64,000 nt of DNA from Macrostomum lignano (Eukaryota): NCBI GenBank assembly GCA_002269645.1, contig NIVC01000815.1, positions 62,001-126,000 on the forward strand, read 5' to 3'. Positions 504 through 63,814 of this stretch are shown piece after piece. The notes below the pieces were generated by a model. That model did no database searches. It was not told the origin of the DNA and saw nothing but the letters and a program-made list of their open reading frames with translations. The first letter of the stretch is position 1, and the number at the start of each line of letters is the position of its first letter. The position numbers were made by a program, and so were the translations under genes.

Positions 504-3306
504 CTGAAGCCACACAGGCAGAAACTTCCGACCAGTCAGTTTGCAGTAGTGCGTCAGCATCGACTCCAAATCCGACTGCATTGCTACGCCGCCTTCGCCG
601 CCTCCGGCGTCCCAGTCGCGTACGAAATCCCGGCAGGCAGCGCGGAGCTCAGCCTGTTCGGGCAAGTCGAACAGGCCGTCGAATTCGTCTAGAAGGCTGG
701 CAGCCCGAGCACCGCCAGACGCCGCGCCCAGACAGATGGACCACACCTGGAGGGCGGAGAAGGTGAAAGCAGTTAAATTAAAAAAAAATGCTTTTCACAA
801 AATCAGTAGATGCGACTTAGAACTCGGAGAGTACAGTTGCTATGAAGGATCAGGGGTTAGAGATACTGACACACTGAAGGATCAGGGGACAGAGCGGCTG
901 TCTCACTGAAGGATCAGGGGACAGAGCGGCTGTCTCACTGAAGAATCTGGGGACAGAGCGGCTGTCTCACTGAAGGATCAGGGGACAGAGCGGCTGTTCA
1001 CTGAAGAATCCGGGGACAGAGCGGCTGTCTCACTGAAGGATCAGGGGACAGCGGCTGTCTCACTGAAGAATCCGGGGACAGAGCGGCTGTCTCACTGAAG
1101 AATCCGGGGACAGAGCGGCTGTCTCACTGAAGGATCAGGGGACAGAGCGGCTGTCTCACTGAAGAATCCGGGGACAGCGCGGCTGTCTCACTGAAGGATC
1201 AGGGGACAGAGCGGCTGTCTCACTGAAGAATCAGGGGACAGAGCGGCTGTCTCACTGAAGGATCAGGGGACAGAGCGGCTGTCTCACTGAAGGATCAGGG
1301 GACAGCGCGGCTGTCTCACTGAAGGATCAGGGGACAGAGCGGCTGTCTCACTGAAGGATCAGGGGACAGAGCGGCTGTCTCACTGAAGGATCAGGGGACA
1401 GAGCGGCTGTCTCACTGAAGGATCAGGGGACAGCGGCTGTCTCACTGAAGGATCAGGGGACAGAGCGGCTGTCTCACTGAAGGATCAGGGGACAGAGCGG
1501 CTGTCTCACTGAAGGATCAGGGGACAGAGCGGCTGTCTCACTGAAGGATCAGGGGACAGAGCGGCTGTCTCACTGAAGGATCAGGGGACAGAGCGGCTGT
1601 CTCACTGAAGGATCAGGGGACAGAGCGGCTGTCTCACTGAAGGATCTGGGGACAGAGCGGCTGTCTCACTGAAGGATCAGGGGACAGAGCGGCTGTCTCA
1701 CTGAAGGATCAGGGGACAGAGCGGCTGTCTCACTGAAGGATCAGGGGACAGAGCGGCTGTCTCACTGAAGGATCAGGGGACAGAGCGGCTGTCTCACTGA
1801 AGGATCAGGGGACAGAGCGGCTGTCTCACTGAAGAATCCGGGGACAGCGCGGCTGTCTCACTGAAGGATCAGGGGACAGAGCGGCTGTCTCACTGAAGGA
1901 TCAGGGGACAGAGCGGCTGTCTCACTGAAGGATCAGGGGACAGAGCGGCTGTCTCACTGAAGGATCAGGGGACAGAGCGGCTGTCTCACTGAAGAATCCG
2001 GGGACAGAGCGGCTGTCTCACTGAAGGATCAGGGGACAGAGTGGCTGTCTCACTGAAGAATCCGGGGACAGCGCGGCTGTCTCACTGAAGGATCAGGGGA
2101 CAGAGCGGCTGTCTCACTGAAGAATCAGGGGACAGAGCGGCTGTCTCACTGAAGGATCAGGGGACAGAGCGGCTGTCTCACTGAAGGATCTGGGGACAGA
2201 GCGGCTGTCTCACTGAAGGATCAGGGGACAGAGCGGCTGTCTCACTGAAGGATCAGGGGACAGCGGCTGTCTCACTGAAGGATCAGGGGACAGCGCGGCT
2301 GTCTCACTGAAGGATCAGGGGACAGAGCGGCTGTCTCACTGAAGAATCCGGGGACAGAGCGGCTGTCTCACTGAAGGATCAGGGGACAGAGCGGCTGTCT
2401 CACTGAAGAATCCGGGGACAGAGCGGCTGTCTCACTGAAGGATCAGGGGACAGAGCGGCTGTCTCACTGAAGAATCCGGGGACAGAGCGGCTGTCTCACT
2501 GAAGGATCAGGGGACAGAGCGGCTGTCTCACTGAAGGATCAGGGGACAGCGGCTGTCTCACTGAAGGATCAGGGGACAGCGCGGCTGTCTTACTGAAGAA
2601 TCCGGGGACAGAGCGGCTGTCTCACTGAAGGATCAGGGGACAGAGCGGCTGTCTCACTGAAGGATCAGGGGACAGAGCGGCTGTCTCACTGAAGGATCAG
2701 GGGACAGAGCGGCTGTCTCACTGAAGGATCAGGGGACAGAGCGGCTGTCTCACTGAAGGATCAGGGGACAGAGCGGCTGTCTCACTGAAGGATCAGGGGA
2801 CAGAGCGGCTGTCTCACTGAAGGATCAGGGGACAGAGCGGCTGTCTCACTGAAGGATCAGGGGACAGAGCGGCTGTCTCACTGAAGAATCCGGGGACATC
2901 AGATCTAATCAACAAAGTCAAGGCTCAGACGCGCCTGAGCACGCAGGTGGCCAGGCACTGCGCGGCCCCTGCAGATATTTCTGACGGTGCCAAAGTCGCA
3001 CTCGTCGTCAAGCAAAGCAGTTTCCAGATCGATTCGCCAAGCTGTTTCGCTGCCACCGCCGAGACCGCCGCCGCCATCATCGGCATCGTCTTCGTCTACG
3101 GTAGCAAAGCCGCTCTCCCGGAGCCGCTCCAGTTCTTCAAACAGATCCTCATCGGCCTCGCCGTCGTCCTCGAAGCCGGACAGCTCAGTTGCCGCGGCAA
3201 TCTGCTCAGCTCCAAATGAATCATGCTCGAGACAGGCATCAGGATCTTCTTCATTAATTAATTCTGACTGAGACTGATTAGCACTAGCAGACCCTGGCTC
3301 TGTCAT
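504..3306 (-). CDS. TBC1D23: TBC1 domain family member 23, 5' part (exons 3306-2935 and 746-504; gene continues left of the window)
   Basis: The spliced translation ...WRIDLETALLDDECDFGTVRNICRGRAVPGHLRAQ|VWSICLG...FDGLFDLPEQAELRAACRDFV...DLESMLTHYCK matches my recollection of the TBC1D23 N-terminus ([41 protein letters not shown]...WDGILDLPEQ...DIESVITFYCK). Acceptor AG is at 748-747 and donor GT at 503-502; the first intron needs a GC donor at 2934-2933. The start codon (3306 or 3345) is uncertain. Confidence 0.88.
843..2898. repeat. 32-bp intronic minisatellite (about 63 copies)
   Basis: Unit CACTGAAGGATCAGGGGACAGAGCGGCTGTCT, with GAATCC variants and 30-bp variants. It fills almost the whole TBC1D23 intron 747-2934. 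Confidence 0.97.
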
Positions 3307-3615
3307 GGCTGCAGCTATGATCAGGTAGGCTGATATGTACTTCAATTGCTTTGCATGAAATCAAAAGGTATTTATAAAGAACATTTAAAGACCAAACTTT
3401 GTTACATCATATTTTTATGCCATTTTAACAAAAAATAAACCTAGATAACAACTGAGATAATAATCTATGCAGTCTATGCAGACCAATAGCTCATTTATCT
3501 TTAGTTATTAAGTTAGCATTCTTCATGTTTGCGCCCACTTTCAATCAATCTTTGCATTCTTCTTCTAAACCTAAAAAACCTAAAATTGACTAACCCCTTG
3601 TTACATTGAATGGAT

Positions 3616-3799
3616 GGGTCTATGAGAATTTCCCTGTGGAAAAACATCTTATGGGAAAACCTTGTTGCAAGAAGATCTTAGTGAGAAATCTCAGCAGGGA
3701 AATCTTGGTGCAAAAGGCTTGGTGGTTAAACCTATGAGAAAACCTTGCTGTGGGAAAAGCTCATGTGGGCAAACCTCAGTAGGAAATTCTCACACTCCC
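3616..3799. mobile_element. MITE of a GGG-terminated family with 8-bp TSD (decayed copy)
   Basis: Termini are GGGTCTATGAGAATTTCC ... GGAAATTCTCACACTCCC. Flanks are GAATGGAT (3608-3615) and AAATGGAT (3800-3807). The ends match those of the element at 56228-56790. Confidence 0.75.
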
Positions 3800-4398
3800 A
3801 AATGGATACTAGTTTATTCTATTTTCAAGCCTTCCTATAGCATTTCCAAATATAGACATAGCTACATGTATAAGGTTATATAAAGGTAACCAAGGAGAAT
3901 TTTTGAAAAGTACCAAGACTGAAATAATTTAAAACATATAAACATATGCATTTTGTTTCTGTATCCTTGCACCAAATACTATAGAAACTATATCTTTATA
4001 GTAGTATAACTCTACCATTGTCTAGTTTTAAGCCACAAAAAGAAAAATTAAAGGAAAGTGTTGTGGTTATGAAATAATTAAGTGTTACTACTTCTTAATT
4101 TTAGTTCAATGATTATATATTGCTTATAAAAATAAAAAAATTTATCTATACAATTTCCTTGACCATAAAAGTTCAAAGATGATAAAATAATAGGCCTAGT
4201 CTATTTAGCTTATTTTTGATTGATAAATTAATCAACCAAAGTATCAAAAATGACTAAATAAAATGGTTATTATTAACAACTTTAATAAGTAAGGACTCTA
4301 TTTTCATGACAATTAGATTTTGAAATAATATTTAAATATTTTTCTTATTAGCAATTAGGTATTTTTAGGAAATACAAAATTCCAACTTTTGCCAATTC

Positions 4399-4650
4399 CA
4401 TACATGCACAACCTTGGGAATCACTGGGCCATTTCTATTGGCAACACATAAGAATTTCTAAGATGTCAAGGATTAGTAAGGGAATTACTAGATTTCAAGG
4501 CTTACTGGGGGATTGCTGATATGTCAAGGCTTGAGTTTAATTGCTACAATGTCAATGCTTACTGAGGGAATTTCTAAGATGTCAAGGCCTACTAGGGGAA
4601 TTGCTGAGATATCAAGGCTCATGGGGGATGGCTGAATTTTTAGGGGGATA
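4399..4650. mobile_element. Left end of a hAT-type MITE followed by a decayed tandem repeat of about 38 bp
   Basis: CATACATGCACAAC (4399-4412) is the TIR of the 8362 MITE with one CpG-type change. It is followed by CTTGGGAATCACTGGGCCATTTCTATTGGCAACA, shared with 62107-62276. No right TIR was found. Confidence 0.5.
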
Positions 4651-5068
4651 GTGTTAGGTTGTTAAGCAATTGTTAGATTGTCAAGTAGTATGGCTTAAAT
4701 AGCTCATTTAATTCAGATAATGAATGATGCAAACACATAAGTGATGCTGATTTCTGCTAATAGGAAATGTCAGTTTATTTATTAAAGGTTTAGTTTGTGC
4801 TGGAAAGAATAAGCACTATTTGCTGATTGAAAAAGAATTTCGGGCTGATGAAAGAAACTGTTTTGGCTAGTAAGAGTTTTGATTCATGGCAATTTATTTT
4901 TGCCAAAATAAGAAAAAATAATTTTTGATTAATTGAAATCAACATTTTGTATAATTAGTAAGGTTAATACTCTCGGGCCAAAATAAAAACTAATTGGCGT
5001 CATTTTTAAAGCCCCCCCCCCAGCGGGTGGCTAATTGGCTAGTTCCATGTACTAAAATGGTTTGTCAG

Positions 5069-30580: not shown

Positions 30581-33500
30581 TGTTGTGGGTTGATGGCTTT
30601 GCCATAGACATTTTTGTTACGCGACTGCGTTGATGAATTGAACCATGCTATTGAGTTATGAAATAAATAATAGACGCGTCAGAGGTCAACAGACCGCTAG
30701 ACTGACAATTGCTAAAGGCAAAAGCCAAAAGCACAACAGTGGCGTCGCAAGCATAGGCTACGAAAATGCCTGGAAGTACGCCAGCATCGCCAACTAAAGG
30801 AGTTGGTAAAACGGTTTCGAGCGACAAAGTACCACCGCTTGCGATCTCGTCGAAATCAGTCCAAGCGACAAAGTCGGCAACAGCGACAGCGCAGAACCCA
30901 AGCGCACAAGTATCGAGAGGACAGCAAGTTGACATCGAAAAACTCGATGAAAGTTCGAACTTCCAGAGGTGGTTGGACCGATTCACACTGTGCAGCGAAC
31001 TCAACGGCTGGCAGGACGACACGAAAAATAAGCTGCTGCTGATGAAGCTCAGCACCAAGCTGTACGACGCATTGGCAGATCGAGCCGCTCCCAAGAAGCC
31101 GGGAGAAAAGAGCTTCGATGAACTGACCAAACTACTGGCCAGCATCCTGGAACCAAAGACGTTCGTCATGGCTGAGAGATTCAATTTCCAGCATATCACT
31201 CGCACGGCATCAATGAGCATTCGTGAGTATGCACAGCAACTCTGCATGCAGGCAGACAAGTGTCAGTTTGGCCTATCCAGAGATGAGAGACTGAGAGATC
31301 AGCTCGTATTCGGTTTGAATGACAAGGTGGCCATCAGCAAGTTATTGGAACAGGACTTCAGCACTCTCACGTTTGAGACAGCTATCAACATCGCTGAGGC
31401 GCACCAGAACCTATCACAAACGCAAATACTAAAGGGTTGCACCAGTCAGCCGCAGTCTTCTGAAGTAATGAAAATTTCAGCATCGGTGACCAGAGGCTCC
31501 CACTATACAAGCTCCAAGTGTGGCAGATGTGGCACAATGCATGGCTCCAATGGAGGGTGTCCTGCGAAAGGAAAAACGTGCAACAAATGTGGCATGCAAA
31601 ACCACTTCGCAACAGTTTGCAAAACGAAATCAACTGGTTTTGGCAAAGGCCGAAAATCGTTCAAAAGCCCGTCAGCATCTGGTCAATTTAGGCGAGCTAC
31701 AGTGTGCCCAAGGACCACAAGCTTTGTAGATGCAAGCGAAGCTGAACAGGAGGATTGTTTTCACATTCGACATCCCGTTGATAGCTACACCGTGCCTGTT
31801 AGGCTCAGACACACGAGCGGGTCGATGCTTAGCGTGAACGCACAAATCGATACTGGGGCAGGAGTTTCGGTAATGTCAAAAACGATCTGGAAACGATTGG
31901 GTTGTCCAAAGCTGACACCTACAGACACTGTTCTGACAACATACGCTGATACGCAGATGAAGGTCTTTGGAACACACGACACTGAGTTGGAGTACAATGA
32001 CGAGTTCATTCCAATCACATTCTTCATTGTGGAATCGCAAAGGAACTTTGTTCTGGTTGGCCGAGACAAGCTCAATTTCACGCTAAACGCTGTAGACAAC
32101 AGCTGCACATCGGCAACCCAGTCATGCGAATTTCCACCAGTAACTCTTAAGATCAAGGAAGGAACCACTCCAATTCATTGCAAACCCAGGCCGCTACCCT
32201 TCGCACTCAGACAGGGAGTCAAGGATGAAATCGATCGGTTGCTTGAAGAAGACACCATCAAGCCCGTCAAGTTCAGTGAATGGGCCTCACCAATTGTCGT
32301 GGTCAAGAAACCTTCTGGAAAGCTCAGACTTTGCGTCTACTACAAGGTGACAATCAATTCTCATCTTATCAACGATTCATATCCGATGCCTGCACCTGAC
32401 GAAGTGATTGCAACTGCTGCTGGCAGCCGGATATACACTCGTCTGGACCTAGAGAAAGCTTATCACCAGATCCCACTAGATGAAGCTTCCAAAGAGCTGA
32501 CAGTAATGTCAACACCATTTGGGATGTTCGCTTTCAACAAGCTTCCGTTCGGAGTGAAAACAGCACCTGCGATCTTCCAGCGGTACATTAGCCAAGTCCT
32601 ACAAGGAATTCCTGGCGTCATTGCCTACGTAGACGACATATTGATATGCGGCAAAGGCGTAGAACAATTGGCAGTTCGTGAGACGGAAGTATTGCATCGA
32701 CTAAACCAGCAAGGATTGAAGATCAACACGGCGAAAAGTGAATTCCGCAAGACTTCGATCAAGTTTCTAGGCTACTTATTGGAAGGAGATCAGCTCAAGC
32801 CGGACCCAGCCAAAGTGAAGGCAATCCAGGACATGACACCACCGCAGAACGTTGGCGAGCTTGAATCTTTCCTGGGTCTCGTAAATTTTAGCGGCAAGTT
32901 CATCAGAAACCTAGCTGCACTGACCAAGCCTCTCAATAGACTAAGAAAGAAAAATGAGGACTTCGTGTGGACAAAGGAGTGTCAAATAGCATTTGACGAA
33001 ATCAAGGTCACTCTCTCTGATCAATCGAGTCTTCAAATATTTGATCCGGAGAAGCCCATTGAACTGGAATGCGACAGTTCTCAGCGAGCTCTGGGCGGAG
33101 TGTTGACACAAAGCGGTCAAGTCGTGCTGTACATGAGCAAGACTCTGTCTGACGCCGAAACAAAATATTCGCAAATAGAGCGTGAAGGCCTGGCACTGGT
33201 TTGGTGCATTCAAAGATGCCATCGGTTCTTGTATGGCCGGAGGTTCACACTGACAACTGATCACCGGCCCCTCACATACATATTCGCGCCAGACAAACAG
33301 CTGCCCACCAGAGTTTCAGCTCGACTACAACGATGGGCAATCATGCTAGCTGCTTATGACTATGTCATACAGTATCGACCATCAAAGCTAATGCTGTCGG
33401 ATGCGCTATCTCGACTGGTGCCCGCTAAGCTGAATGCACAGACAGCATCGATCGGACTCCTCGAAGCTGACAACCCGGGAGTAATTCAGCTGGATCGCAT

Positions 33501-34919
33501 TGCACACGCAACCAGAGAGGACCCGGAGTTCAGATGCCTGGGCGCAGCCATAATTAACAATAATCTATTTGACGACCCACACCTACTCAGCTACTCGAAG
33601 GTTCAAGATGAGCTAACTGTCAATGATGGAATTATTTACAGAATGAACAGAATTGTATTGCCTCGTGTCCTGAGAGAAACTGCCCTGGCAGCTGTACACT
33701 CAACGCACCTTGGGGTGGAAAAGTCAAAGTCAATTTTGAGGGAACAGTTCTGGTGGCCACAGATGGACCGTGACATCGCTGACTACATTGGACGATGCAA
33801 CGTGTGCAACGCGTACAAGTCCAGAAATAAGAACTTTCGGCACTCGTGGCCAGAACCTGACAACCCCTGGGAGCGAGTGCACATTGATTTTGCCGGTCCG
33901 ATAGAGGGCAAGTACCTACTCATCATTGTGGATGCGCACTCGAGCTACCCGGAAGTCTTCATCACGAGCGACATGAAGGCCGACACAGTCATTTCCAGAC
34001 TTAGAAGATTGTTCTCACAACAGGGGGTGCCCAAGTGTCTCGTGTCAGACAACGGCCCTAGTTTTGTGAGCGAAGCGGTGACCGGCTGGCTCACCCAGAT
34101 TGGCTGTTCGCACATCACAACGCCCGCCTACCATCCACAGAGCAACGGCATTGCAGAGCGAATGGTGCGAACCGTCAAAGAGACAATCAAGACCAATGGT
34201 TTATCCCAAAGAAGTATTGACAGATTTCTACTGTTCTACAGAGCTGCCAAAGGGAAGCAGCAAGCATCACCGTCCGAGTTGTTGAACGGCAGACAAATAA
34301 GACTCCCCATCTCGGAGAGCAGCACTCAGTCCAAGTGGATCCCAGGAGAATCACTCATCTACCGTGCATCGAGTTCTCATGAGCCACGAACTGTGAGATT
34401 CGCCAAAATGCTTGGCAGCAACACAGCAGTCGTCACCACAGAGACTGGACGAAATCTAAAGACCCACCTCGATCAACTACGAATCGGTGAGGTACCTGAG
34501 GCTCACGGAACTACGGAAATGGGGGATTCCAAGCCCGGTGGCAACGGTCCAAGTGACGACGGCCAACAGACGCGTCTGTCATCGACAGACACTGAGATAC
34601 TACCGGGAACAGAACAAGCTGAGAGAGCACAACAGCAGCAGACTGAGGTTGGAGTTCAATCCAAGCCGTCACCCAGGCGAAGCGAACGCTTGGCCAAGAA
34701 AACTAGAATTTTTTATCGCACCTGAGTGATAATTGTACACCTACCTATAGAAGAGGGAGGGTGTTGTGGGTTGATGGCTTTGCCATAGACATTTTTGTTA
34801 CGCGACTGCGTTGATGAATTGAACCATGCTATTGAGTTATGAAATAAATAATAGACGCGTCAGAGGTCAGCAGACCGCTAGACTGACAATTGCTAAAGGC
34901 AAAAGCCAAAAGCACAACA
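30581..34919 (+). mobile_element. Full-length Ty3/Gypsy LTR retrotransposon, Mag-like
   Basis: 158-bp TG...CA LTRs (30581-30738, 34762-34919) differing at one visible position, 5-bp TSD GGCAC, PBS TGGCGTCGCAAG at 30740 and PPT AGAAGAGGGAGGG at 34749-34761. Confidence 0.97.
30766..34725 (+). CDS. Gag-Pol polyprotein (1319 aa): gag with two zinc knuckles, protease, RT, RNase H, integrase
   Basis: CGRCGTMH...C and CNKCGMQNHFATVC knuckles; protease DTG; RT YVDD; RNase H CDSS/EREGLA/TDHRPL; integrase H..H/C..C, DFAGP, SDNG, ERMVRT. The single ORF, short LTRs and double knuckle fit the Mag lineage. Confidence 0.96.
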   Translation: MPGSTPASPTKGVGKTVSSDKVPPLAISSKSVQATKSATATAQNPSAQVSRGQQVDIEKLDESSNFQRWLDRFTLCSELNGWQDDTKNKLLLMKLSTKLYDALADRAAPKKPGEKSFDELTKLLASILEPKTFVMAERFNFQHITRTASMSIREYAQQLCMQADKCQFGLSRDERLRDQLVFGLNDKVAISKLLEQDFSTLTFETAINIAEAHQNLSQTQILKGCTSQPQSSEVMKISASVTRGSHYTSSKCGRCGTMHGSNGGCPAKGKTCNKCGMQNHFATVCKTKSTGFGKGRKSFKSPSASGQFRRATVCPRTTSFVDASEAEQEDCFHIRHPVDSYTVPVRLRHTSGSMLSVNAQIDTGAGVSVMSKTIWKRLGCPKLTPTDTVLTTYADTQMKVFGTHDTELEYNDEFIPITFFIVESQRNFVLVGRDKLNFTLNAVDNSCTSATQSCEFPPVTLKIKEGTTPIHCKPRPLPFALRQGVKDEIDRLLEEDTIKPVKFSEWASPIVVVKKPSGKLRLCVYYKVTINSHLINDSYPMPAPDEVIATAAGSRIYTRLDLEKAYHQIPLDEASKELTVMSTPFGMFAFNKLPFGVKTAPAIFQRYISQVLQGIPGVIAYVDDILICGKGVEQLAVRETEVLHRLNQQGLKINTAKSEFRKTSIKFLGYLLEGDQLKPDPAKVKAIQDMTPPQNVGELESFLGLVNFSGKFIRNLAALTKPLNRLRKKNEDFVWTKECQIAFDEIKVTLSDQSSLQIFDPEKPIELECDSSQRALGGVLTQSGQVVLYMSKTLSDAETKYSQIEREGLALVWCIQRCHRFLYGRRFTLTTDHRPLTYIFAPDKQLPTRVSARLQRWAIMLAAYDYVIQYRPSKLMLSDALSRLVPAKLNAQTASIGLLEADNPGVIQLDRIAHATREDPEFRCLGAAIINNNLFDDPHLLSYSKVQDELTVNDGIIYRMNRIVLPRVLRETALAAVHSTHLGVEKSKSILREQFWWPQMDRDIADYIGRCNVCNAYKSRNKNFRHSWPEPDNPWERVHIDFAGPIEGKYLLIIVDAHSSYPEVFITSDMKADTVISRLRRLFSQQGVPKCLVSDNGPSFVSEAVTGWLTQIGCSHITTPAYHPQSNGIAERMVRTVKETIKTNGLSQRSIDRFLLFYRAAKGKQQASPSELLNGRQIRLPISESSTQSKWIPGESLIYRASSSHEPRTVRFAKMLGSNTAVVTTETGRNLKTHLDQLRIGEVPEAHGTTEMGDSKPGGNGPSDDGQQTRLSSTDTEILPGTEQAERAQQQQTEVGVQSKPSPRRSERLAKKTRIFYRT

Positions 34920-35384: not shown

Positions 35385-36294
35385 GTGCAGATCCCAGTGT
35401 TGTAAAGCAGTTGTAAAGTTCTCGACCACCGCCTGGATCAACGTGCATACGTTTGTGTCGTTAAAGAAAGGAAATTGAATACTCGATTTTCTATTATTGT
35501 TAATTAAGCTAGCCAAGTTTTAAAATTTATGCGATATAATAGTCTTGTGTTCGAAAGATTTAAAGGTCACAATGTCAACCAGTATAGCGCATCCGTTCGG
35601 CTGGATTCATATTCGTAATTATTAAAATCTGGCCCGGATTGGTTGCTCCCGCGGTTTCATTTGAAGGAAGCCCAGAAGCAAATTGGATTGTTGAAAATGC
35701 ATCATCTGATCCGGTTAAGAAATAAAGTCTATACCAGACCAGAGCCACATAATTGGGAATCCAGACTTATTCTAGTGTCTGTCTTCCAGTCAATTAGTCA
35801 TATCATAATTCTTGCTAATCTCAGCATTAATACCAGCAGTCCTGTAGAGTAGCAAGATTTGCTACCAAAAGACGATGGTTTATATGCCTGCAACGCACAT
35901 GGAATGAGCACACGACCGTGTGGTCTGAAACAGGCGACAGATAACAAGTGCGCAGAGGCAAGGTGCTCATTTCAGTAAAACGCACACAGAGCTCCTCAGT
36001 TCGCAGCCGTGCTTGTTCGCAAAACAACTCTGCTGTACATTAATAAGAATCAAGACAAACTTCCTTTCCTCGGATTGGAGCTAGATAATTATTGAGTGAC
36101 CTGCGTATCTTACGGCAAGATTCACTTAGCGGCAGAGCAGAGCTACATATATTTAGCTCATGCTTTTGCGTCCGTTATATAAATCATATAAAGTAGATAG
36201 TCCTTAGCATTGCCTATGCCACTGCACTAAAGCATTCTTGGTCGGTCAGAGTCAAAAGACTGAAGCTACAAGCTAAACTCATATTGGAAGAAGG

Positions 36295-38741
36295 ATGGGC
36301 CAGTGTTTCGCTCGATTGATTGGCAGAGTTCCTAGTACGCCGTCTGAGTCACGCGCTGTTTCGTCGGACATCCCATTGGAACCCACTCCACGCATGAAAA
36401 CCTTGTTCGCGTATACCGCCCAAACACCCGGCGACTTGTCGTTCGAGAAAGACGAAATCTTGTACTTCGAGCGCGAGGACGTCGAAGGCTGGTGTTGGTG
36501 TCGCAACAAAGACGGCGAAACCGGCTTCGTACCGTCAAATTTTGTGCAGCGCCTCGATCTCGGACCGGAGTCCCTGCCTTGCTGGTTTGACGTCGACCGT
36601 CACGAGGCGATGAGTAACTTACTGATGCCAGGCTACAAGCCGGGCACCTACCTGCTGCGGCCTTGCCACCAGCAAAGAGTAGTTGCTAAGTACACTCTGA
36701 GCGTTCGATCCGAAGTGCTTAACGAGAATACCGGTGAAATGCGACCAACAGTAAGTCACTACATGGTGAAAGCGATGGACAATGGCGGATACTACATATC
36801 GCCAAGCAACAGATTTGACGGAATGGCTGACCTGCTGGAGTACTACAAGGAGCCGGGCCGCGGTCTTGCTGCGCCTCTCAGTTTGCCCTGCCCGAAGGTG
36901 TGGGTGCCCCCGGCCCAGTTCCGCGACTTTGAGGTGGAACGAGAGCGGATCACTATTCTTGAGAAGCTGGGCAGCGGATCATTTGGAGAGGTTTGGCTTT
37001 TATGTACTGTTGTACGAGCGTTTTTCGAACAATTCTGATCATTCTGGTCCGAGTACAAGGCTCGCAGGACCTGACAGTTAAAAAAAAATTAGAATTTAGA
37101 GCAAGAATTTTAACCAAATTGACATCTCCAATTGACCGCTTGTCCGTCAAGAATTTATCTGCATTTATCTGGAGCTGCATCCTTATAAGAAAAAGGGCTT
37201 CAGGGAGACGGATAGGTGAAGATAAAGTTCAATTAGCCTATTTAAATTTGGAAAGCCATGCAATGGTTGGAGTTTCCTTTTTTGGTCCGAGTTCAACGCG
37301 ACACACTTGCTCTGATGAAAGCGCGCAGAAGTTGCTGCACTGTGCTTTCAACTATAAATGTAATTAGGAGGACAGACACCAGATAGCTAGTTGTACCTAC
37401 GCAGTTCTACTGTATATAGCTACATGTGTATTATTATTCTTGATTGGTTCTAAGATAGCTGGCAAACCTACTGAGGCGTCTAAAAACTAACTAAGCGGCA
37501 AGCGGTTTTAAGTTTTTAGACATGACTGGTTCACTAATTTTAGCAAGCAGGAGCAGCAGCAGTAGCACCGATGTAAATCTTGTAGGGTCTATAAGTTTGC
37601 GTTTTCGTATAGTTAAGTAGTCTAAACTGCTTTGCATAAATAACAGCCAGATAGTTTAACTTGAATTTTAAAGCATTTTAGCTAAGAATAGCTAGTTGAA
37701 TGATTGGCCTTGTAGAGATTAAAATTACTGCTTCTATCAATTCTATAATTCTGTATCTTTTTTCAAGCTCCGTTTTAAAAACATGCCAGAATTTTGTACA
37801 CTTTTTTGCTTTTTAGTACGCATCTCGAAAGTGCAAACAATCAACATTTTAAGAGTACAATCTACAATACGAGTACCAAAAGAGTTAGCTATGAGTACAT
37901 GCTTAAATCCACACAATAAGTCAGTCTGCTCTACACGTCTTGCTCGCCTTTCATATCTTAGGTGTACAAAGCCCAGCTCGGCCGGAGGCAGATGGTGGCC
38001 GTGAAGACCATGACCGAGGGAGCCATGCGCAAGGAGGAGTTCCTGAGCGAAGGCCGCACTCTGCACAAGTTGCACCATCCGAAAATAGTGCAACTGCTGG
38101 GCGTGTGCACCAAAGACGACCCCATCTACATCATCACCGAGTTCATGCCTAACGGTGACCTGAAGAATTACCTGATGAAGGATCGCGATGTCGGTAAAAT
38201 CACATTTGAAGTCATGGTGACCATGTTGAGCCAGATTGCCGAAGGCATGGAGTACCTGGAGACCAAGAGCTTCGTCCATCGAGATTTGAGGGCAGCCAAC
38301 ATTCTCGTTGGTCACAACTTTGTGGTTAAAGTAGCCGACTTCGGTCTGAGCAAGTTTCTAGAAGAGGACGTTTACTCAGTAGCAGTGGAGAACAAGTTTC
38401 CTGTGAGATGGACAGCACCGGAGGCTGCTCAGTCCATGGAAAATTTTACAATCAAATCAGACGTTTGGTCATACGGCGTACTGATCTACGAGGTTGTTAC
38501 CAGGGGCGCAGTTCCGTACGCAAACATTCCAAACAAAGACATTATCACCAGAGTGTCTAAAGAGAAATACCGGATGCCGAACCCTAGAAGTCTGGGCAAC
38601 GAGAACGACGATCATGTGTACAAATTGATGCTGGACTGTTGGCACGAGAGGCCCGAAGACAGGCCGACCTTCGCCAGGCTGAAGGACATTTTCCAGACCT
38701 ACAAGACCCAGTTTGAGAACCAATATTCTCAAAACGATTGA
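36295..38741 (+). CDS. Src-family (Src/Frk-like) non-receptor tyrosine kinase, 491 aa; exons 36295-36990 and 37962-38741
   Basis: MGQC myristoylation/palmitoylation start; SH3 (LFAY...GDLSFEK...GW...GFVPSNFV); SH2 (W..VDR..GTYLLR); GSGSFGE|VY; VAVK; HRDLRAAN (Src-type); DFG; FPVRWTAPE; C-terminal regulatory Tyr (ENQYSQND). Phase-0 GT-AG intron. Confidence 0.95.
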
Positions 38742-46242: not shown

Positions 46243-49200
46243 ATGATCCAATCTGGTATTTTAGCTGGCAAGAAGATTGCCATCACCTGTCTGGAAGACT
46301 CATTCGATAGCCTGTCAAATGCTATCGCAAAGAAAACCAATGTTCCAGTGGAGAATCAGAAATTAATTTATAAAGGTAAAATGATTTCTTTAACAACTGT
46401 GACAGGCCTTTTGGCTCTGTCTTTCTAAACTTCTAACTATTAGTGTTTATTAAATATCCTACGAGCTGCCACCAAAGTTGTTACAGGCCTTTCACCTCTT
46501 ACTTTATCAATTTTAATCCCACCGATTTGCCAACTACAGTTATCCTGATTATACTTGCTTTTACTCCCTAACTATTTCTTAGAATTTCATTTAAATATTT
46601 CTGGGTAGCGTTCTTAGTAGCGTTTCTGGTAGCTTATGGCTTGCTTTCTGGTAGCGTTCTAGTAGCTTATGGCCTGAGCGGTCTAGTACTGGTATATGTA
46701 TTAGTGTATAGTCCTAATCGGGCGTTCACCAAGACTAGAGGGTCACGGCGCCTCTCTTGGTATATCTCCAAGAATTAGTCCCAATTCCCTTCTCTTAGCA
46801 AATTTCTTAGAATCGTTTCACAGGCACAGGTTTTGCAAATAAATAAGTCGCTATTTAGCTCAAAGACTTTGAAATGGTTTAGATTGAACTGCTTATTCTG
46901 TTCGCAATTATTTGCTCACGAGTAAAAGACAGTTAGCGTATATTTGTCGCAAAACCGCTCCTATATATAGTGATTTTCCCCACATACGATTAAAACAAAA
47001 AATAATTCTCCAATTTATTTCGCGCATTAAAACAAACTATTATTTGGCGTTCGCGTAGATTCAGTTTCTAAGAAAGATTCGAATATACAGTTATTACATT
47101 GAAAGAACATTCGAGTATACTATGATAAAGGCATAGCACTAGTACAACTTTCCTCCTCTATATATCAAATTTTGAACGAAATACTATATTATATGTATAC
47201 AGTGAAAAATTGATATCGTAGGAAAATGCAGGTGAAAAGGTGCAAAGCAAGGTGCAGAAAACACAATTCAGTGCTAAAACAATTGGTGCATAAAATGGTT
47301 GTGATAGAACTATTATGTAGGTAAACCATTAAAGTGAGAACTATTATGGAAGCAAAACGAACTATTATAAAAGTATTATAAAAGGCAAAATTGTTATTAA
47401 AGGCAACGCAAAAGTTAGTTCACCTCAATAGTTCAGATAAACATGCAGGGCTCCGGGAGGTCGCGATAGTAGGGCCAGCCGACTTGAGCGAAAAACCATC
47501 GGTACTCTTCGTCGAGGACCGTCAGCGCTGGCGGCGGGTTGGCTCTTATAGCTCGCTGGAGGCGATAGGCGACGTCCTGGAGAACAGCGACAGCTTCCTG
47601 GTAACTGAATTGATCCCTCAGAAACTTCAGGTGTGTCCAAATTTGCGAGCATTGGGGGTAGCGCTGTCGGCTGTCGGATCGGTGGTACGCTACTTTCAGT
47701 GCGTATTGCTCAATGTGGAAGCGTAGCTTTTCCACCTCTGCTCCGCGAGTCTCCACAAGTTCTCGGACGATGCGATGAAAATCTCTCTGCGAATTCGATT
47801 GCTGCTGGCTCGGCTGTAGTGCTGATGGCTGGCTAGACTGCTGCGCTGATTGCAGGCTCGGCTGCGACGCTGGCTGCTGAGCTGGCGGTGTCGCAGCTGT
47901 CGATTTCTTCTGCCGTGGTGCCGGGGTCTTTCTCGATGATGGGGCAGCTGGCGGTGACACCAACTGCTGCGTTCGGCTTGATGTCGACGATCCTGGCGTG
48001 GCCTTGACAAGATAGGAGCGCACGGGCGCAGCTGCCTGTGCTGCCACCAGGGCGGCGCGCTTCTGCTCGGGGCCTTCGACCCTCATTTGGCGGCAAGGCG
48101 ATGAAGCTGGCGATGATGTTCTTGGCCGTTTGCTGGATACACCAGGCGCCTTTGGACGTGTTGCACATCGAAGCGGTGCCTCATTTTCGTCGGTGTTGGG
48201 CGCTGGCTGGGGCTCCATATCGTCTGACAGATTGCCAATTAACTCGTCCAAGATATCAATAGAGTTGTTCATTTTGATTTCTCTGCGAATGGCTCTTAGA
48301 ATAGAAAGGAAGCTAGCAGTGAGCTATGGGATCTGTGGGGCCTGCGGGGTGCTCGTATTTATAGGCTGGCGGGCCGAAAAACTGGACCTCTTCGAAGCAC
48401 TCCCCTCGCGCGTGGGGCGGGGCATGTCAGATTTGACAGATTTGGCAACTAAATTTTTATGGATTTTCTATTTCTTTTTATAATTTTTTTTATTTTTTGA
48501 TAGATTTTCTTGAGTAAAGTATCAAATTAAAGATCGCATTTTGTAGATTAATATGGTATTTACAGATTCGCTCTATGTACAGCATGTCAAATTTTATAAG
48601 CAGATAAGTAATTCTAATACGGAATTTTTAACTATTTAACACTGTTTCTTATGGGAAATTGCTTACGTCATGATTTAAGGTGCTAAATATTTCGCGTAGC
48701 GCCTTCGGGGCACAAATCCTGTCGCGCCTTCTCTTTCTCTCTCTTGCTGAGTCACTCTATTGTCTCGGGGTCTCAAATTATAGCCTCCTACTGTGTTAGC
48801 ACGTTCCTCCTCTAACTCTATTGCTCCTTCTTCTTCTGATGGCTCATCTGAGTCAGTCGCTCTCTCTGTATTTTCACTGTTCAATTCTTCATTTCCTTCG
48901 TTTTCACTCTGCGAATTCGGATCTGCGAATACTCTCCATTGAATTCTGTTTTCTTCGTCTGAGCTTTCCTCCTCTAAAATTTGAACTTCTGGAATTCTAA
49001 CTTCTTTTTGTCTATGGCAAATTCTTTTATTCGACTTCGGCGGTTCCTTCTTCTTAGTTGACACTGGTGCTGGTTTTAAATTATTGTTAATTTCCTCTGG
49101 TAAATCAATTTCGGATTTCGGCACTGGAGTCAGATTATTACTGTTTTTCTTCGAACAATTTTGCAAATTCTCACAGCTTCTCTTCGAAATCTCATCTTCA

Positions 49201-52200
49201 TTCCATCTCATCTCAACTCAACAACTTCTCGACTCAATATCTCGACTCGACCCTGACCTCTCGAAAGCTTCTCTGCTGAACTCATGCCAGCTACAGCTCT
49301 ACTGTCACGGGTCCTACAACTCTTAACAAATTCCCAAATCTCGAATCTCCTTCCGCTATCTCAGTTTGGCCTCGTCAGTAGAATCATAGAAATTCTGTAT
49401 TAATCTGCTCTTTAGGCCTTACTGCCCTTCCTTTCCTGCATGGCCTGACTCTCTGAACCTTTTTTTTGGCTCTTCTGAAAGCGTCATCGGCCTCTTCTTT
49501 CTGCCTTTGACCAATCCGCAATTGGTCAGCATGCGTAGCTGTCCGCGCGTCATGCCAATCTCTGCAATCCAATCTTTTCGACAATTCTCTTCGCACAATT
49601 CTGCACAGTTCTCTCAGCATCAACTTCTCGTCAACTTCTCTGAGTAAAATAATCTTCCTTCAATGTTTTCAGTCCGAAATTGCAGTTCCCTGGCTTTCCT
49701 AAATAAGTTTCTTAGTAAAACGGCCCTTTTAAGGTCAAACGGCCCTTTTAAGGGTCACCTTCCTAAATTTTTAGCTATTTAACGAACTTTAGACGGCTTA
49801 CTTGGTCAGTACATTGCAGTATGCAGACGAAATATTTTTTTTGGGTTTTCTGAATTTTTTTTTTTTATTCGTTTTTATATTTTTTGCATATTTGAAACAT
49901 ATTTACAAATAGCTTTCAGATTCGCGCTCCTGTGTACGAGTCTTCTTAGGGTGGCTTCTGCTGGGCGTGCCGGTTGAAGTTGATTCGGCACTGGTGTCCT
50001 GCCTGAGGCCTAATGGGTCCTGGCTGGTTGCAGAAGAAGCAGTGACCAGGTGTCGGCTCTGGCCTGATTCCACTGAATTTGTTCAGGCGGCGCGGTCTTG
50101 GCACTGACTGCTGCTGCTGCCCTGTCTTTGGTTCTAGGCTAATGTTCGTTAGCACGAAGGTCAAGGTCATTAGACACTCTACTAATGCATCAATTCCCTC
50201 TTTTCGGTTCTGCTGCTTCGGCTCAAATTCTTCGATTATTCGTCGCCTAATTTCCTGATACTGACTCTGCTCTTTTCTGTGACTGATTCGGCGTTTCAGT
50301 CCCTCTGGGATGTTTAGATTAGCAAAGAGAGCTTCCTTCTGTTTCTCGACTGTAATCCCTTGGATTGTGCACTGTTGCTCAAACGTGTTCATCCACTGCC
50401 TAATGTTCTGACCAGGCGTGAACTTTTCTACTTGCACTTCAGCTTCTTTCGATCCTAACTTGAGATGTTTCCGCAGTTCCTCTGCCAGCATGGCGATGGC
50501 ATCATTAGCCTGATTCTGATTCATCTTCTCTTTACGAAAAACTTTTCAAATTATTCTTCGGAATTCTTCTGAATCTAGCTTTAAGAGTTCGCGCCGTTTC
50601 TCTAATCCCACCGCTGCCACCAGCTGTGACAGGCCTTTTGGCTCTGTCTTTCTAAACTTCTAACTATTAGTGTTTATTAAATATCCTACGAGCTGCCACC
50701 AAAGTTGTTACAGGCCTTTCACCTCTTACTTTATCAATTTTAATCCCACCGATTTGCCAACTACAGTTATCCTGATTATACTTGCTTTTACTCCCTAACT
50801 ATTTCTTAGAATTTCATTTAAATATTTCTGGGTAGCGTTCTTAGTAGCGTTTCTGGTAGCTTATGGCTTGCTTTCTGGTAGCGTTCTAGTAGCTTATGGC
50901 CTGAGCGGTCTAGTACTGGTATATGTATTAGTGTATAGTCCTAATCGGGCGTTCACCAAGACTAGAGGGTCACGGCGCCTCTCTTGGTATATCTCCAAGA
51001 ATTAGTCCCAATTCCCTTCTCTTAGCAAATTTCTTAGAATCGTTTCACAGGCACAGGTTTTGCAAATAAATAAGTCGCTATTTAGCTCAAAGACTTTGAA
51101 ATGGTTTAGATTGAACTGCTTATTCTGTTCGCAATTATTTGCTCACGAGTAAAAGACAGTTAGCGTATATTTGTCGCAAAACCGCTCCTATATATAGTGA
51201 TTTTCCCCACATACGATTAAAACAAAAAATAATTCTCCAATTTATTTCGCGCATTAAAACAAACTATTATTTGGCGTTCGCGTAGATTCAGTTTCTAAGA
51301 AAGATTCGAATATACAGTTATTACATTGAAAGAACATTCGAGTATACTATGATAAAGGCATAGCACTAGTACACAACCAATACTTATATTTCGTATTGCA
51401 CTCAAGTTCCAAAAAAGTTCTGACTTTTACATATTAAACTCCCACCTAATGGCAGATACATATTGGCACATTTCTGCCAAGTAGCCTCGTTGTTACCACC
51501 CTCTTATTGGCCAGTAGTGGGTCTTCACTGCTCATGGTTGTGTTATGAAGTTTTATTTCTCCCCTTCCTACACTCCTCTCATCCCTCTCATCTCCCTCCT
51601 CCCACTTCTCCCACTTCTCCCTCTTCTCCCAGTTCTCCCAGTTCTCACATTTCTTTTTCTCACACTTTTCCCTCTTCTTCCACTTCTTCCAGTTCTCCCT
51701 CTTCTCCCTCTTCTCCCTCTTCTCCCTCTTCTCCCTTTTCTCCCCCTTCTTCCAATTCTCACTCTTCTCTACTTCTCCCACTTCTCCCATTTCTCCCTTT
51801 CCTCCCACTTCTCTCACTTCTCCTATTTCTCCCTCTTCTCCCTCCTATTTCGCCCTCTTCTCACTCTTCTCCTATTTCTTCCTCTTCTCTACTTCTCCCA
51901 CTTCTCACGCTGCTCCGTCTCCTCCAAGATCTCCCAGATATCTCTCCTCTCCCTCTCCTCCCAGTCCTCCCCTTCTGCTCTTGTTCCCCTAGCAACTAAT
52001 CAAGGTGTGATAAAACAAAAGCCAACCGCACTGGCACAACAGGCAAGTCGCTACAGCCGGGCAGCAGCCTCAGCCAGCAGGGCCTGTCACCCGGCTGCAA
52101 GCTGATGCTGATCGGCAGCTGCGAGGAGGTCGCCAGGCCGGAGGCATTTGCCGCGCTTGACGCAGTCGACCGAGAAGTGGAAGCGATGGAAGCCAAGCTG

Positions 52201-54103: not shown

Positions 54104-59043
<4,940 letters not shown>

Positions 59044-62866: not shown

Positions 62867-63814
62867 ATGTCCAGCGCCAGCCGCAAGAAGATCCTATTGA
62901 AGGTGATCATCCTTGGCGACTCCGGTGTCGGCAAGACCTCCCTAATGAACCAATTCGTGAACAGGAAGTTCAGCAACCAGTACAAGGCCACAATTGGTGC
63001 GGACTTCCTCACCAAGGAGCTCATGGTTGATGACCGGGTGGTCACCCTGCAGCTGTGGGACACGGCGGGCCAGGAGCGGTTCCAGTCGCTGGGCGTCGCC
63101 TTCTACCGCGGCGCCGACGCCTGCATGCTGGGTGAGTGCCGAGCTTTGTGCCTGCTGACAACCAACAGAACCGCCAGCCTCGTACAGTCGTGCTAGACTG
63201 GGCTGTGGGCTATGAAGTACTTCTGGAACTCTCTGATCACCTCCCAGATCCTCCCAGATCCCCTGATCACCTACCAGATCCCCTGATCACCTCCCAGTTC
63301 CCCAGTCACCTCCTAGATCCCCTGGTCACCTCCCAGATCCCCTGATCACCTCCCAGATCCCCAGTCACCTCCCAGATCCCCTGATCACCTCCCGGATCCC
63401 CAGTCACCTCCCAGATCCCCGCCCGCACCCGCAGTGTACGACGTGACGCAGCCGAACTCCTTCAAGACCCTGGACTCGTGGCGGGACGAGTTCCTCATCC
63501 AGGCCAGCCCCCGCGACCCGGACAATTTCCCATTCGTGCTGGTTGGCAACAAGATTGACCTGGAGAACCGCGGCGTCACCAAGAAGCGCGCGGCCCAGTG
63601 GGCGCAGACCAAGTCCAACATGCCCTACTTCGAGTGCAGCGCCAAGGAGGCCGTCAACGTTGAGGCCGCCTTCATGCAGCTGGCCAAGGACGCCCTGGCC
63701 CAGGAGGCCGCATCCGACGATGCCGGCGCCTCGGAGCTGCCGCCGGCCATCCAGCTGCAGGGCGGCGCCGGACAGCAAGGCGGGCAGCAGCAGAGCGGCG
63801 GCTGCTCCTGCTGA
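62867..63814 (+). CDS. RAB7A: Ras-related protein Rab-7; exons 62867-63131 and 63435-63814
   Basis: [70 protein letters not shown] and a C-terminal CSC prenylation motif. Phase-1 GT-AG intron. Confidence 0.98.
63233..63420. repeat. Minisatellite (about 19-20 bp) in the RAB7 intron
   Basis: CCTCCCAGATCCCCTGATCA / CCTCCCAGATCCCCAGTCA units. Confidence 0.9.

Follow-up and report, generated by a model that had tools for sequence, protein, structure and literature searches.

Gag-bearing satellites and self-promoted accessory ORFs of LTR retrotransposons are already known in plants. In einkorn wheat, RLG_Quinta, the non-autonomous partner of RLG_Cereba, is described as carrying an old, divergent Gag and an unknown domain (PMC11302176). 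The wheat elements Angela, Sabrina and WHAM are presented as 'semi-autonomous', long-lived Gag-encoding lineages that switch partners by LTR transfer (PMC9744471), and the TR-GAG elements of plants are given as shorter than 4 kb, with one ORF and with gag but no pol (PMC4350172). Maize Grande gene23 and Retand TRP28 are clade-wide antisense ORFs between pol and the 3' LTR, and gene23 is reported to have its own promoter and a nuclear product, for which a regulatory role was proposed (PMC7264820, PMC11963269). In animals, CERV of the C. elegans element Cer1 is a nuclear accessory protein that is translated from a spliced mRNA and required for the export of RNA (PMC10309623), bdelloid elements carry non-env ORF3s, and the non-autonomous family TelKA2n has retained ORF3 beside a truncated gag (PMC5408684), and the env of Oikopleura Tor has an internal promoter after pol (PMC4402516). 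Complex retroviruses typically encode their own transcriptional regulators; for LTR retrotransposons such regulators have only been proposed, in a few and mostly plant cases. The foamy-virus protein Tas, an accessory protein expressed from an internal promoter, has an acidic activation region and stimulates the LTR.

The window analysed here, 64,000 nucleotides of the Macrostomum lignano contig NIVC01000815.1, contains a 4976-bp element (46398..51373, minus strand), which the initial annotation had described as a young, non-autonomous LTR retrotransposon without pol, and this description was verified. The 5' LTR (50625..51373) and the 3' LTR (46398..47146), on the minus strand like all internal features given below, show 0 mismatches over 749 bp and have TG..CA termini. 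U3 contains a TATA box and a repeated TTTGTTT(T/A) motif, and U5 of the 5' LTR contains degenerate copies of the sequence formed by the LTR end together with the PBS. The element is flanked by the 4-bp target site duplication CAAC (46394..46397 and 51374..51377, plus strand), and such a duplication flanks 19 of the 23 copies that were scored; the other four belong to tandem arrays. The PBS (50604..50622), two bases past the LTR, pairs over 19 nt with the 3' end, CCA included, of genomic tRNA-Leu (AAG/TAG), and a polypurine tract (PPT; 47147..47159) abuts the 3' LTR. Pfam found no family above the cut-off in any of the four ORFs (192, 78, 178 and 279 aa), in agreement with the noted absence of RT, RNase H and integrase, and the ORFs lie where they had been placed, except that the ATG of the 78-aa ORF is at 49620 and not at 49623. 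A three-unit heat-shock element is absent from the element and from 28 U3 stretches. The element shares gag without pol with the TR-GAG elements but differs from them in size (4976 bp) and in its ORFs, as both a short gag and the 279-aa ORF, hereafter ORF3, are under selection (PMC4350172).

The autonomous partner with the same LTR and PBS that had been suggested as a search target was found in the form of complete Ty3/gypsy helpers, with LTRs ending in TG..CA, tRNA PBS, PPT and target site duplications; Pfam analysis of one of them (L034) identified a gag with a CCHC zinc knuckle and a pol of the order PR-RT-RH-IN. The satellite and the helpers have in common the LTR, PBS, a pol tail, ORF3 and the PPT, so that the element, without RT or integrase and with the PBS and LTR ends of an autonomous family, corresponds to a non-autonomous partner as described in PMC11302176. 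From the LTR identity of 98.2-100% and the target site duplications in copies without pol, we infer that the satellite is mobilised in trans by the helper family, and complete Ty3/gypsy helpers are the likely source of its copying. ORF3 lies after pol in the complete helpers and was found in an element context in 32/40 and 11/12 sampled relatives, which belong to a clade with RT identities of 86-100% and ORF3 domain identities reaching down to ~25%. Its presence in autonomous helpers and across their clade indicates an ancestral accessory gene, contrary to the proposal that the 279-aa ORF is cargo captured by this element. The explanation we favour, in which we place about as much trust as doubt, is that of a young satellite without pol, likely copied by Ty3/gypsy helpers, with ORF3 as a clade-wide accessory gene for a predicted nuclear transcriptional activator.

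The short Gag (49946..50524, 192 aa) comprises the N-terminal part of the capsid, the first helix of its C-terminal part and a CxxC..H.C knuckle. Only the first ~19 codons match the helper at the DNA level; the satellite-specific core (49143..50468), which covers most of the short gag and a non-coding spacer, has no helper DNA match, and a comparison of 17 of the 18 satellites with 20 helpers gave the same result for the gag core (0/17). The short Gags are 35-40% identical to the helper Gag over the capsid part, show dN/dS values of mostly 0.10-0.15, and form one side of a branch with 100/99 support in a tree that excludes L081, which has no start motif. Judged from its sequence, the 192-aa Gag is a shortened capsid that belongs to a single, old lineage of satellites. 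The two small ORFs did not hold up as genes: the 78-aa ORF (49384..49620) is unconserved, changes frame from copy to copy and was treated as non-coding spacer, and most of the 178-aa ORF (48675-49211) is a remnant of the pol 3' end, encoding the C-terminal tail of Pol (48675..49142), at which the block shared with helpers begins. That the element is not a simple helper deletion, its gag and spacer belonging to a separate old lineage, had been missed in the initial annotation.

These data bear on the alternative that the satellite arose by a simple, recent deletion and carries ORF3 as a passenger useful to the helpers only. ORF3 is broken in 5/15 close satellite copies, whereas the short gag is open in 17/17, and ORF3 adjoins the PPT, with which it would travel along. 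However, all 12 distant satellites sampled have the ORF3 domain, through which the sample itself was found, and a core without helper DNA match, together with an old and selected Gag, refutes the simple deletion; the alternative as a whole is improbable. The favoured satellite resembles Quinta/Cereba in having its own old divergent Gag, a common PBS and LTR ends, and recombination around the gag region; unlike plant Quinta as described, where the extra domain is within the gag ORF and missing in the helper, ORF3 is separate, has its own predicted promoter and is shared with helpers, and the satellite Gag is truncated inside the capsid (PMC11302176). For the plant lineages Angela, Sabrina and WHAM, the account in PMC9744471 mentions no 3' accessory gene that partners share and swap as alleles.

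The phylogenetic data show that ORF3 has moved between backbones. In the comparison covering 17/18 satellites, five different ORF3 alleles each occur in a satellite and in a helper with an identity of at least 98%, the helpers being different ones, and the satellite ORF3s are not a clade (p-AU 5e-52, tree without L093 and L118). ORF3 alleles were also exchanged between helper backbones that are 97-100% identical. The ORF3/LTR module has thus been exchanged repeatedly, and a satellite that switches helpers is the best reading of these sequences. The U3 comparison, which leaves out L093, showed that L047 combines the U3 of the window element (99%) with an ORF3 domain of 79% identity and that L018 combines that ORF3 with a 74% U3; the ORF3 and U3 alleles are thus partly uncoupled, a point against the LTR being recognised in a strictly allele-specific way.

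The same data could be explained if ORF3 were an anti-silencing factor or host-defence antagonist blocking a chromatin or small-RNA pathway rather than directly switching on a promoter, its many old alleles reflecting a race with host factors. The ORF3 domain diverges far faster than RT across the clade (21-79% versus 86-100% identity), the alleles moved into the near-identical backbones have saturated synonymous sites, and ORF3 is not bound to a single U3 allele. Against this, pN is above pS in none of the nine pairs compared, no enzyme or reader domain was found in ORF3 by Pfam and fold searches, and the conserved acidic N-terminus is more simply explained by activation. We regard anti-silencing as possible but doubtful.

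To return to the predicted activator, ORF3 (47433..48272, 279 aa) encodes an acidic-hydrophobic N-terminus, EAPLRxxTRP, KRP and KRAA motifs, a low-complexity linker with arginine-rich motifs and a C-terminal five-helix domain (~residues 157-279, 47436-47804), an anatomy that agrees with the regulator-like features noted earlier. Residues 1-30 contain 7-13 D/E and at most four K/R in 21/21 proteins, K48 and R49 are the same throughout, and there is almost no variation in the EAPLR and KRAA motifs. The acidic-hydrophobic N-terminus is reminiscent of acidic activation domains. Selection on the ORF had also been proposed and is purifying, with pN/pS below 1 in 9/9 pairs (0.14-0.40 in the C-domain, 0.30-0.50 in the N-half, pS 0.58-0.83). 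Among 35 close loci the frame is open in 21, broken in 12 and unscored in two, and of 11 breaks examined, nine are deletions of 1-2 nt and could stem from errors in the assembly; that only 21/35 are open nevertheless counts against the favoured explanation.

AF2 predicted five ordered helices for the C-domain (pLDDT 86) and disorder elsewhere, apart from short helices at 8-12 and 68-80, so the helical domain of the initial annotation was recovered as a model, but Foldseek against PDB and viral structures gave no assignment at E<=0.001. Pfam found nothing above the cut-off in 24 members of the domain, word-indexed protein searches matched 0/111 and 0/7997 candidates, PDB sequences gave 0 matches and the Atlas search no usable one. 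With VIA the best Z was 7.9 (cobalamin-cap-like four-helix bundles), followed by the Gle1 CTD at 7.7, in the range of common arrangements. Outside Macrostomum-named records and one unnamed record, the searches thus returned no match by sequence or by fold, a result that does not establish the modelled fold as new. The bacterial TPR protein P0007 (E 4.7e-7, 8 stretches) was rejected as a chance helical-repeat match to the ORF3 profile. The C-domain is only mildly basic (14-20 K/R versus 10-15 D/E), and this, with the lack of a DNA-binding fold match, counts against the activator reading.

Its position, which is that of env, and a Y-x9-D spacing that by eye resembles the J-domain YxxLAxxxHPD segment would suggest that ORF3 is either an env/fusogen or, like the ORF3 carried by a different gypsy clade of the genome, a J-domain co-chaperone that has diverged. 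Both identities were rejected as extremely improbable. As env, ORF3 would show a signal peptide or transmembrane helix and a cysteine-rich ectodomain, yet none of the 21 proteins has a transmembrane stretch, the maximal Kyte-Doolittle 19-mer value is 1.11 and only 1-5 cysteines are present (21/21). As a J-domain protein it has neither the HPD motif nor a DnaJ profile match; the profile-profile probability against 13 J-domains is 0.1%, and the ORF3 profile misses the elements with a J-ORF3, which have an RT identity of 40-47%. ORF3 resembles the bdelloid and Tor genes as one of the diverse ORF3s of animal LTR elements and differs from them in being neither an enzyme nor a membrane protein, as those are described (PMC5408684, PMC4402516). 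Like gene23 and TRP28 it is a clade-wide extra ORF between pol and the 3' LTR, but it is in sense orientation, unlike those plant-specific antisense ORFs, and Pfam did not find the TRP28 domain (PMC7264820, PMC11963269).

Upstream of ORF3, the predicted internal promoter (48356..48422) consists of a GC box (48414-48422), the motif GGTCCAGTTTTT (48377-48388) and the TATA-type TATAAATA (48356-48363). The TATA and GC boxes first noted here are both present; the GC box, found at the same place in only 3/19 families, is unconserved. A canonical TATA lies 70-130 nt upstream of the ATG in 12/19 families, GGTCCAG(T/C)TT is present in 14/19 and CCAAT in 12/19, and an independent promoter, as first suggested, is likely given the TATA-type motifs kept across families; the lack of a canonical TATA in 7/19 counts against the favoured explanation. 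Among runs not catalogued as RNA, two that skip host GT..AG introns gave contigs that cover ORF3 as well as the satellite core and are not assignable to the window copy. Contigs, which give presence only, also continue upstream past the ORF3 TATA and mark no separate start, a point against the favoured explanation, and those examined contain no splice joint inside the element.

An adaptor of the Rev/CERV type, exporting or stabilising unspliced genomic RNA with the N-terminal leucine motif as export signal and the satellite pol tail as RNA target, would accommodate the 450-870 nt of helper pol tail and promoter region that satellites retain, and the arginine-rich linker motifs. CERV offers a precedent from an animal LTR element, and ORF3 is like it a novel accessory protein, with a nuclear role that is here predicted, in a gypsy element of an animal; CERV differs in using a spliced mRNA, and no homology between the two was found (PMC10309623). 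With no splice joint in the contigs, regulated export is not obviously needed, the ORF3 profile matched no nematode protein, and the pol tail may merely mark a crossover site, so this adaptor is unlikely.

For the activator we propose instead, transcription from its own TATA promoter would make ORF3 production independent of the LTR. The protein would enter the nucleus through the KRP/KRAA motifs, its five-helix domain would attach to the DNA of the element or to a host factor present on that DNA, and its N-terminus would recruit co-activators, increasing full-length helper and satellite transcripts in trans. Such a Tas-like model fits the kept promoter motifs and the acidic and nuclear-type motifs, with activation being a prediction from composition; the searches gave no sequence or fold match between ORF3 and the retroviral Tas. 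From the anatomy and the plant precedents we infer the later steps, in which satellite RNA would be co-packaged with helper RNA, the truncated Gag would enter helper capsids via its retained N-terminal part, its different knuckle would favour satellite RNA, and template switches in reverse transcription would give the satellite core the ends and ORF3 allele of the current helper. A larger three-way system is rather unlikely: helpers would encode the transactivator as exchangeable alleles of a new five-helix domain, an ancient satellite would capture activator and LTR from each helper, its half-capsid Gag hijacking the particles of the helpers, and a host-kept lone domain without activation region would act as a dominant-negative brake.

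No literature description of the ORF3 family or of its combination with the satellite was found, and three short element motifs are absent from five supplementary files of PMC12801592; a classification paper cited there could mention them. The satellite would represent an animal case of a long-lived Gag-encoding retrotransposon parasite that changes helper, and RT-based surveys would overlook it. ORF3 would be a clade-wide candidate regulator that combines a new domain with numerous old alleles and a naturally shortened, stand-alone form of 118 aa, directly testable in the host, for which transgenesis and LTR reporters are described (PMC12801592).

The satellite spacer also contains two copies of the near-palindromic motif CCYNRRAAGGGCCGTTTT (49717..49753). 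A role as satellite packaging signal is weakened because 19/20 sampled places of the motif are other repeats and it has 1033 matches genome-wide, compared with 0 for the control. The motif, common in unrelated repeats, is present in all sampled satellites and in no sampled helper.

The element at window positions 46398-51373 (minus strand) is bounded by identical LTRs of 749 bp (ends TG..CA) and flanked by a CAAC target duplication; it also has a PPT and a PBS complementary over 19 nt to a tRNA-Leu that the searched genome (G000) encodes. Its four ORFs lie where the initial annotation had placed them, and none of the four matched a Pfam family above cut-off. In the U5 part of both LTRs, the LTR end together with the PBS is repeated in degenerate form, with a repeat number that varies among copies (L004, L035, L040, L088); beyond TGGTGGCAGCG the PBS variants diverge.

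Searching G000 with the internal region yielded 42 matches. Of these, 14 covered nearly the whole length at 94-100% identity, and a further group matched the 3' part only. Pol sequence was present in 17 of 20 longer stretches (seven with a single unbroken frame of 1513-1520 codons), and three were pol-less. The search for an autonomous partner with the shared LTR, recommended by the annotation, recovered a complete form (helper) of about 8.65 kb, in which gag with a CCHC knuckle is followed by an overlapping pol (PR-RT-RH-IN) and then by the same ORF3 as in the window (279 aa, 47433-48272). The window element aligns with the complete form at element positions 1-905 (97.7%) and 2232-4976 (96.1%), with no match between, indicating that the 178-aa ORF (48675-49211) is mostly the tail of Pol rather than a gene of its own; nor does the 78-aa ORF (49384-49620) behave as a gene, its frame or length differing among copies. 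Within each of the 15 close pol-less copies the two LTRs agree at 98.2-100%, and 4-bp target duplications flank 19 of 23 scored copies, and therefore both forms moved recently. A protein bearing the name of Macrostomum lignano matches the helper RT-RNase H at 100% identity. Some helper copies form tandem arrays with one LTR in common (L033/L034, L045/L046, L043).

Pol-less elements make up 12 of 40 sampled relatives, and their short Gags, 52-67% identical to that of the window, are set apart together by a 100/99 branch. Of the capsid, these proteins retain the N-terminal part plus the helix that follows directly; the remaining capsid and the coiled spacer are lost. Their terminal knuckle, CxxC..PG.IRP...H.C, resembles that of the distant helpers L113/L114 and differs from the canonical one in the near helper. 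The short gag is open in 17/17 close copies, its dN/dS is mostly 0.10-0.15 (dS being saturated between lineages), and the gag core of 17/17 satellites matched none of 20 helpers at the DNA level. A near-palindromic AAAAGGGCCGTTTT motif at 49717-49753 occurs in 18/18 satellites and 0/28 helpers; its 1033 matches in G000, among them unrelated repeats, speak against the satellite specificity that this first suggested, and the motif resembles a binding site for a dimeric factor.

ORF3 had been regarded as possible captured cargo, but proved to be a clade-wide accessory gene present in complete helpers. Two protein searches of G000, with 150 matches scored in each, reached identities down to about 25%; gag, pol or an LTR pair accompanied the ORF3 match in 32/40 and then 11/12 sampled cases, ORF3 being placed after pol and before the 3' LTR. 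ORF3-bearing elements share 86-100% RT identity and lie on one side of a 100/100 branch, opposite the J-domain clade. The latter, another gypsy clade (L154-L158), carries a J-domain ORF3 and has an RT 40-47% identical to that of the ORF3-bearing clade. In a profile search 5/7 hits were named Macrostomum lignano. Two assembled proteins (P0002/P0008) display the full ORF3 architecture at no more than 50% identity to the 21 families compared, so the family reaches beyond the sampled copies.

The suspected selection on ORF3 was borne out: pN/pS spans 0.14-0.40 for the C-domain and 0.30-0.50 for the N-half (9/9 pairs, Fisher p <1e-11), with synonymous sites near saturation between alleles. Intactness holds only in part, the frame being open in 21 of 35 close loci and broken in 12 (two not scored); among 11 breaks examined, nine consist of the loss of 1-2 nt. 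Likewise, of the proposed ORF3 promoter the canonical TATA is kept in 12/19 families but the GC box in only 3/19, and the upstream region also contains GGTCCAG(T/C)TT (14/19) and CCAAT (12/19). The family appears to be transcribed, since RNA-type runs X8 and X2, which skip host GT..AG introns as X16 does not, each contain contigs that cover ORF3 and the satellite core, a host intron bin being empty. These contigs run past the TATA, and no separate ORF3 start was seen in them.

Satellite ORF3s do not group as a clade (p-AU 5e-52): for each of five distinct alleles, a satellite version and a helper version agree at 98-100% (L001-L034, L018-L047, L083-L084, L091-L090, L118-L093). Helpers also exchange the ORF3 module: L047 matches L039 at 97-100% almost throughout, yet at 73-88% in ORF3; L081 and L084 have gag-pol in common at 91-100% with different ORF3 and LTR. 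The simplest cause would be template switching between co-packaged RNAs, as proposed for wheat elements (PMC9744471, PMC11302176).

The first 30 residues are strongly acidic in 21/21 ORF3 proteins. The alignment shows an N-terminal D-D-phi-L-x-E-L-L pattern, then EAPLRxxTRP, an invariant KR and a KRAA helix. After these come proline/glutamine linkers, which vary freely in length, and a domain of about 120 residues in which R, D, P, L, W, W and P are invariant. AF2 predicts this domain as a confident five-helix bundle (pLDDT 86, pTM 0.78) and the remainder as disordered. Sequence and fold searches revealed no relative of known function. Env identity was rejected (transmembrane stretch absent in 21/21 proteins), as were J-domain identity (probability 0.1% against J-domains, no ORF3-profile hit in J-domain elements) and TRP28 membership.

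ORF3 combines an acidic-hydrophobic terminus with basic motifs, extended disordered linkers and a single folded domain. Transcriptional activators are usually built in this way, and for this reason we predict that ORF3 is one, at about even odds. Against this, the domain is not strongly basic and matched no DNA-binding fold. A putative role as defence antagonist fits as well, given the fast allele turnover, and that of an RNA-export adaptor fits the pol tail kept by satellites. ORF3 and U3 alleles are partly uncoupled, and therefore any ORF3 target would have to be either a host protein or a motif that is conserved. A candidate target is the repeated TTGTT(T/A) in the U3 of both LTRs, which is forkhead/Sox-like; it is found in 17/17 families, and its 39 occurrences compare with 7.7 in dimer shuffles (maximum 18 in 1000 shuffles) for a motif picked post hoc. 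One locus without LTR, gag or pol matches within about 8 kb (L116:7873-8229, L194:4821, L195:4842; flanks mostly 94-98% alike) retains the promoter motifs of ORF3 together with an open reading frame of 118 aa that consists of the helical domain only, lacking the acidic N-terminus, basic motifs and last conserved tail. Judged by sequence, it would fit a candidate domesticated dominant-negative brake; as haplotypes of one locus, the three copies carry no information on selection yet.

Each part of the system has a precedent in kind: cereal elements likewise combine Gag-encoding satellites with helper switches (PMC9744471, PMC11302176), Grande and Retand have self-promoted accessory ORFs (PMC7264820, PMC11963269), CERV an accessory protein (PMC10309623) and Tor an internal promoter (PMC4402516), and TelKA2n also keeps an ORF3 (PMC5408684). 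TR-GAG (PMC4350172) is comparable in kind, yet the window element falls outside that group. Literature searches returned no description of the ORF3 protein or of the satellite; an RT-based survey of LTR elements in Macrostomum lignano (PMC12801592) has none of the terms 'ORF', 'non-autonomous' and 'accessory' in the available main text. The architecture and history of the system are well supported, and we hold them with high confidence.

The element lies antisense within an intron of a BAG1-like host gene, which has a ubiquitin-like exon and matches a BAG domain weakly. Host segments occupy 46265-46376 and continue from 52044, and in one RNA-type run 46376 is connected with 52044, bypassing the element. 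An X16 contig, whose match stops at 46397 with 223 more letters unaligned, may represent an empty-site allele. Elsewhere in the window, 30757-34725 holds an unrelated gypsy element with a single 1322-aa gag-pol frame and an RT 33% identical to that of the helper. Exons named by eye resemble a Src-type kinase (36277-38741; two runs splice out the intron 36989-37959), a cathepsin L-like protease (57566-58183) and a Rab7-like GTPase (63317-63814).
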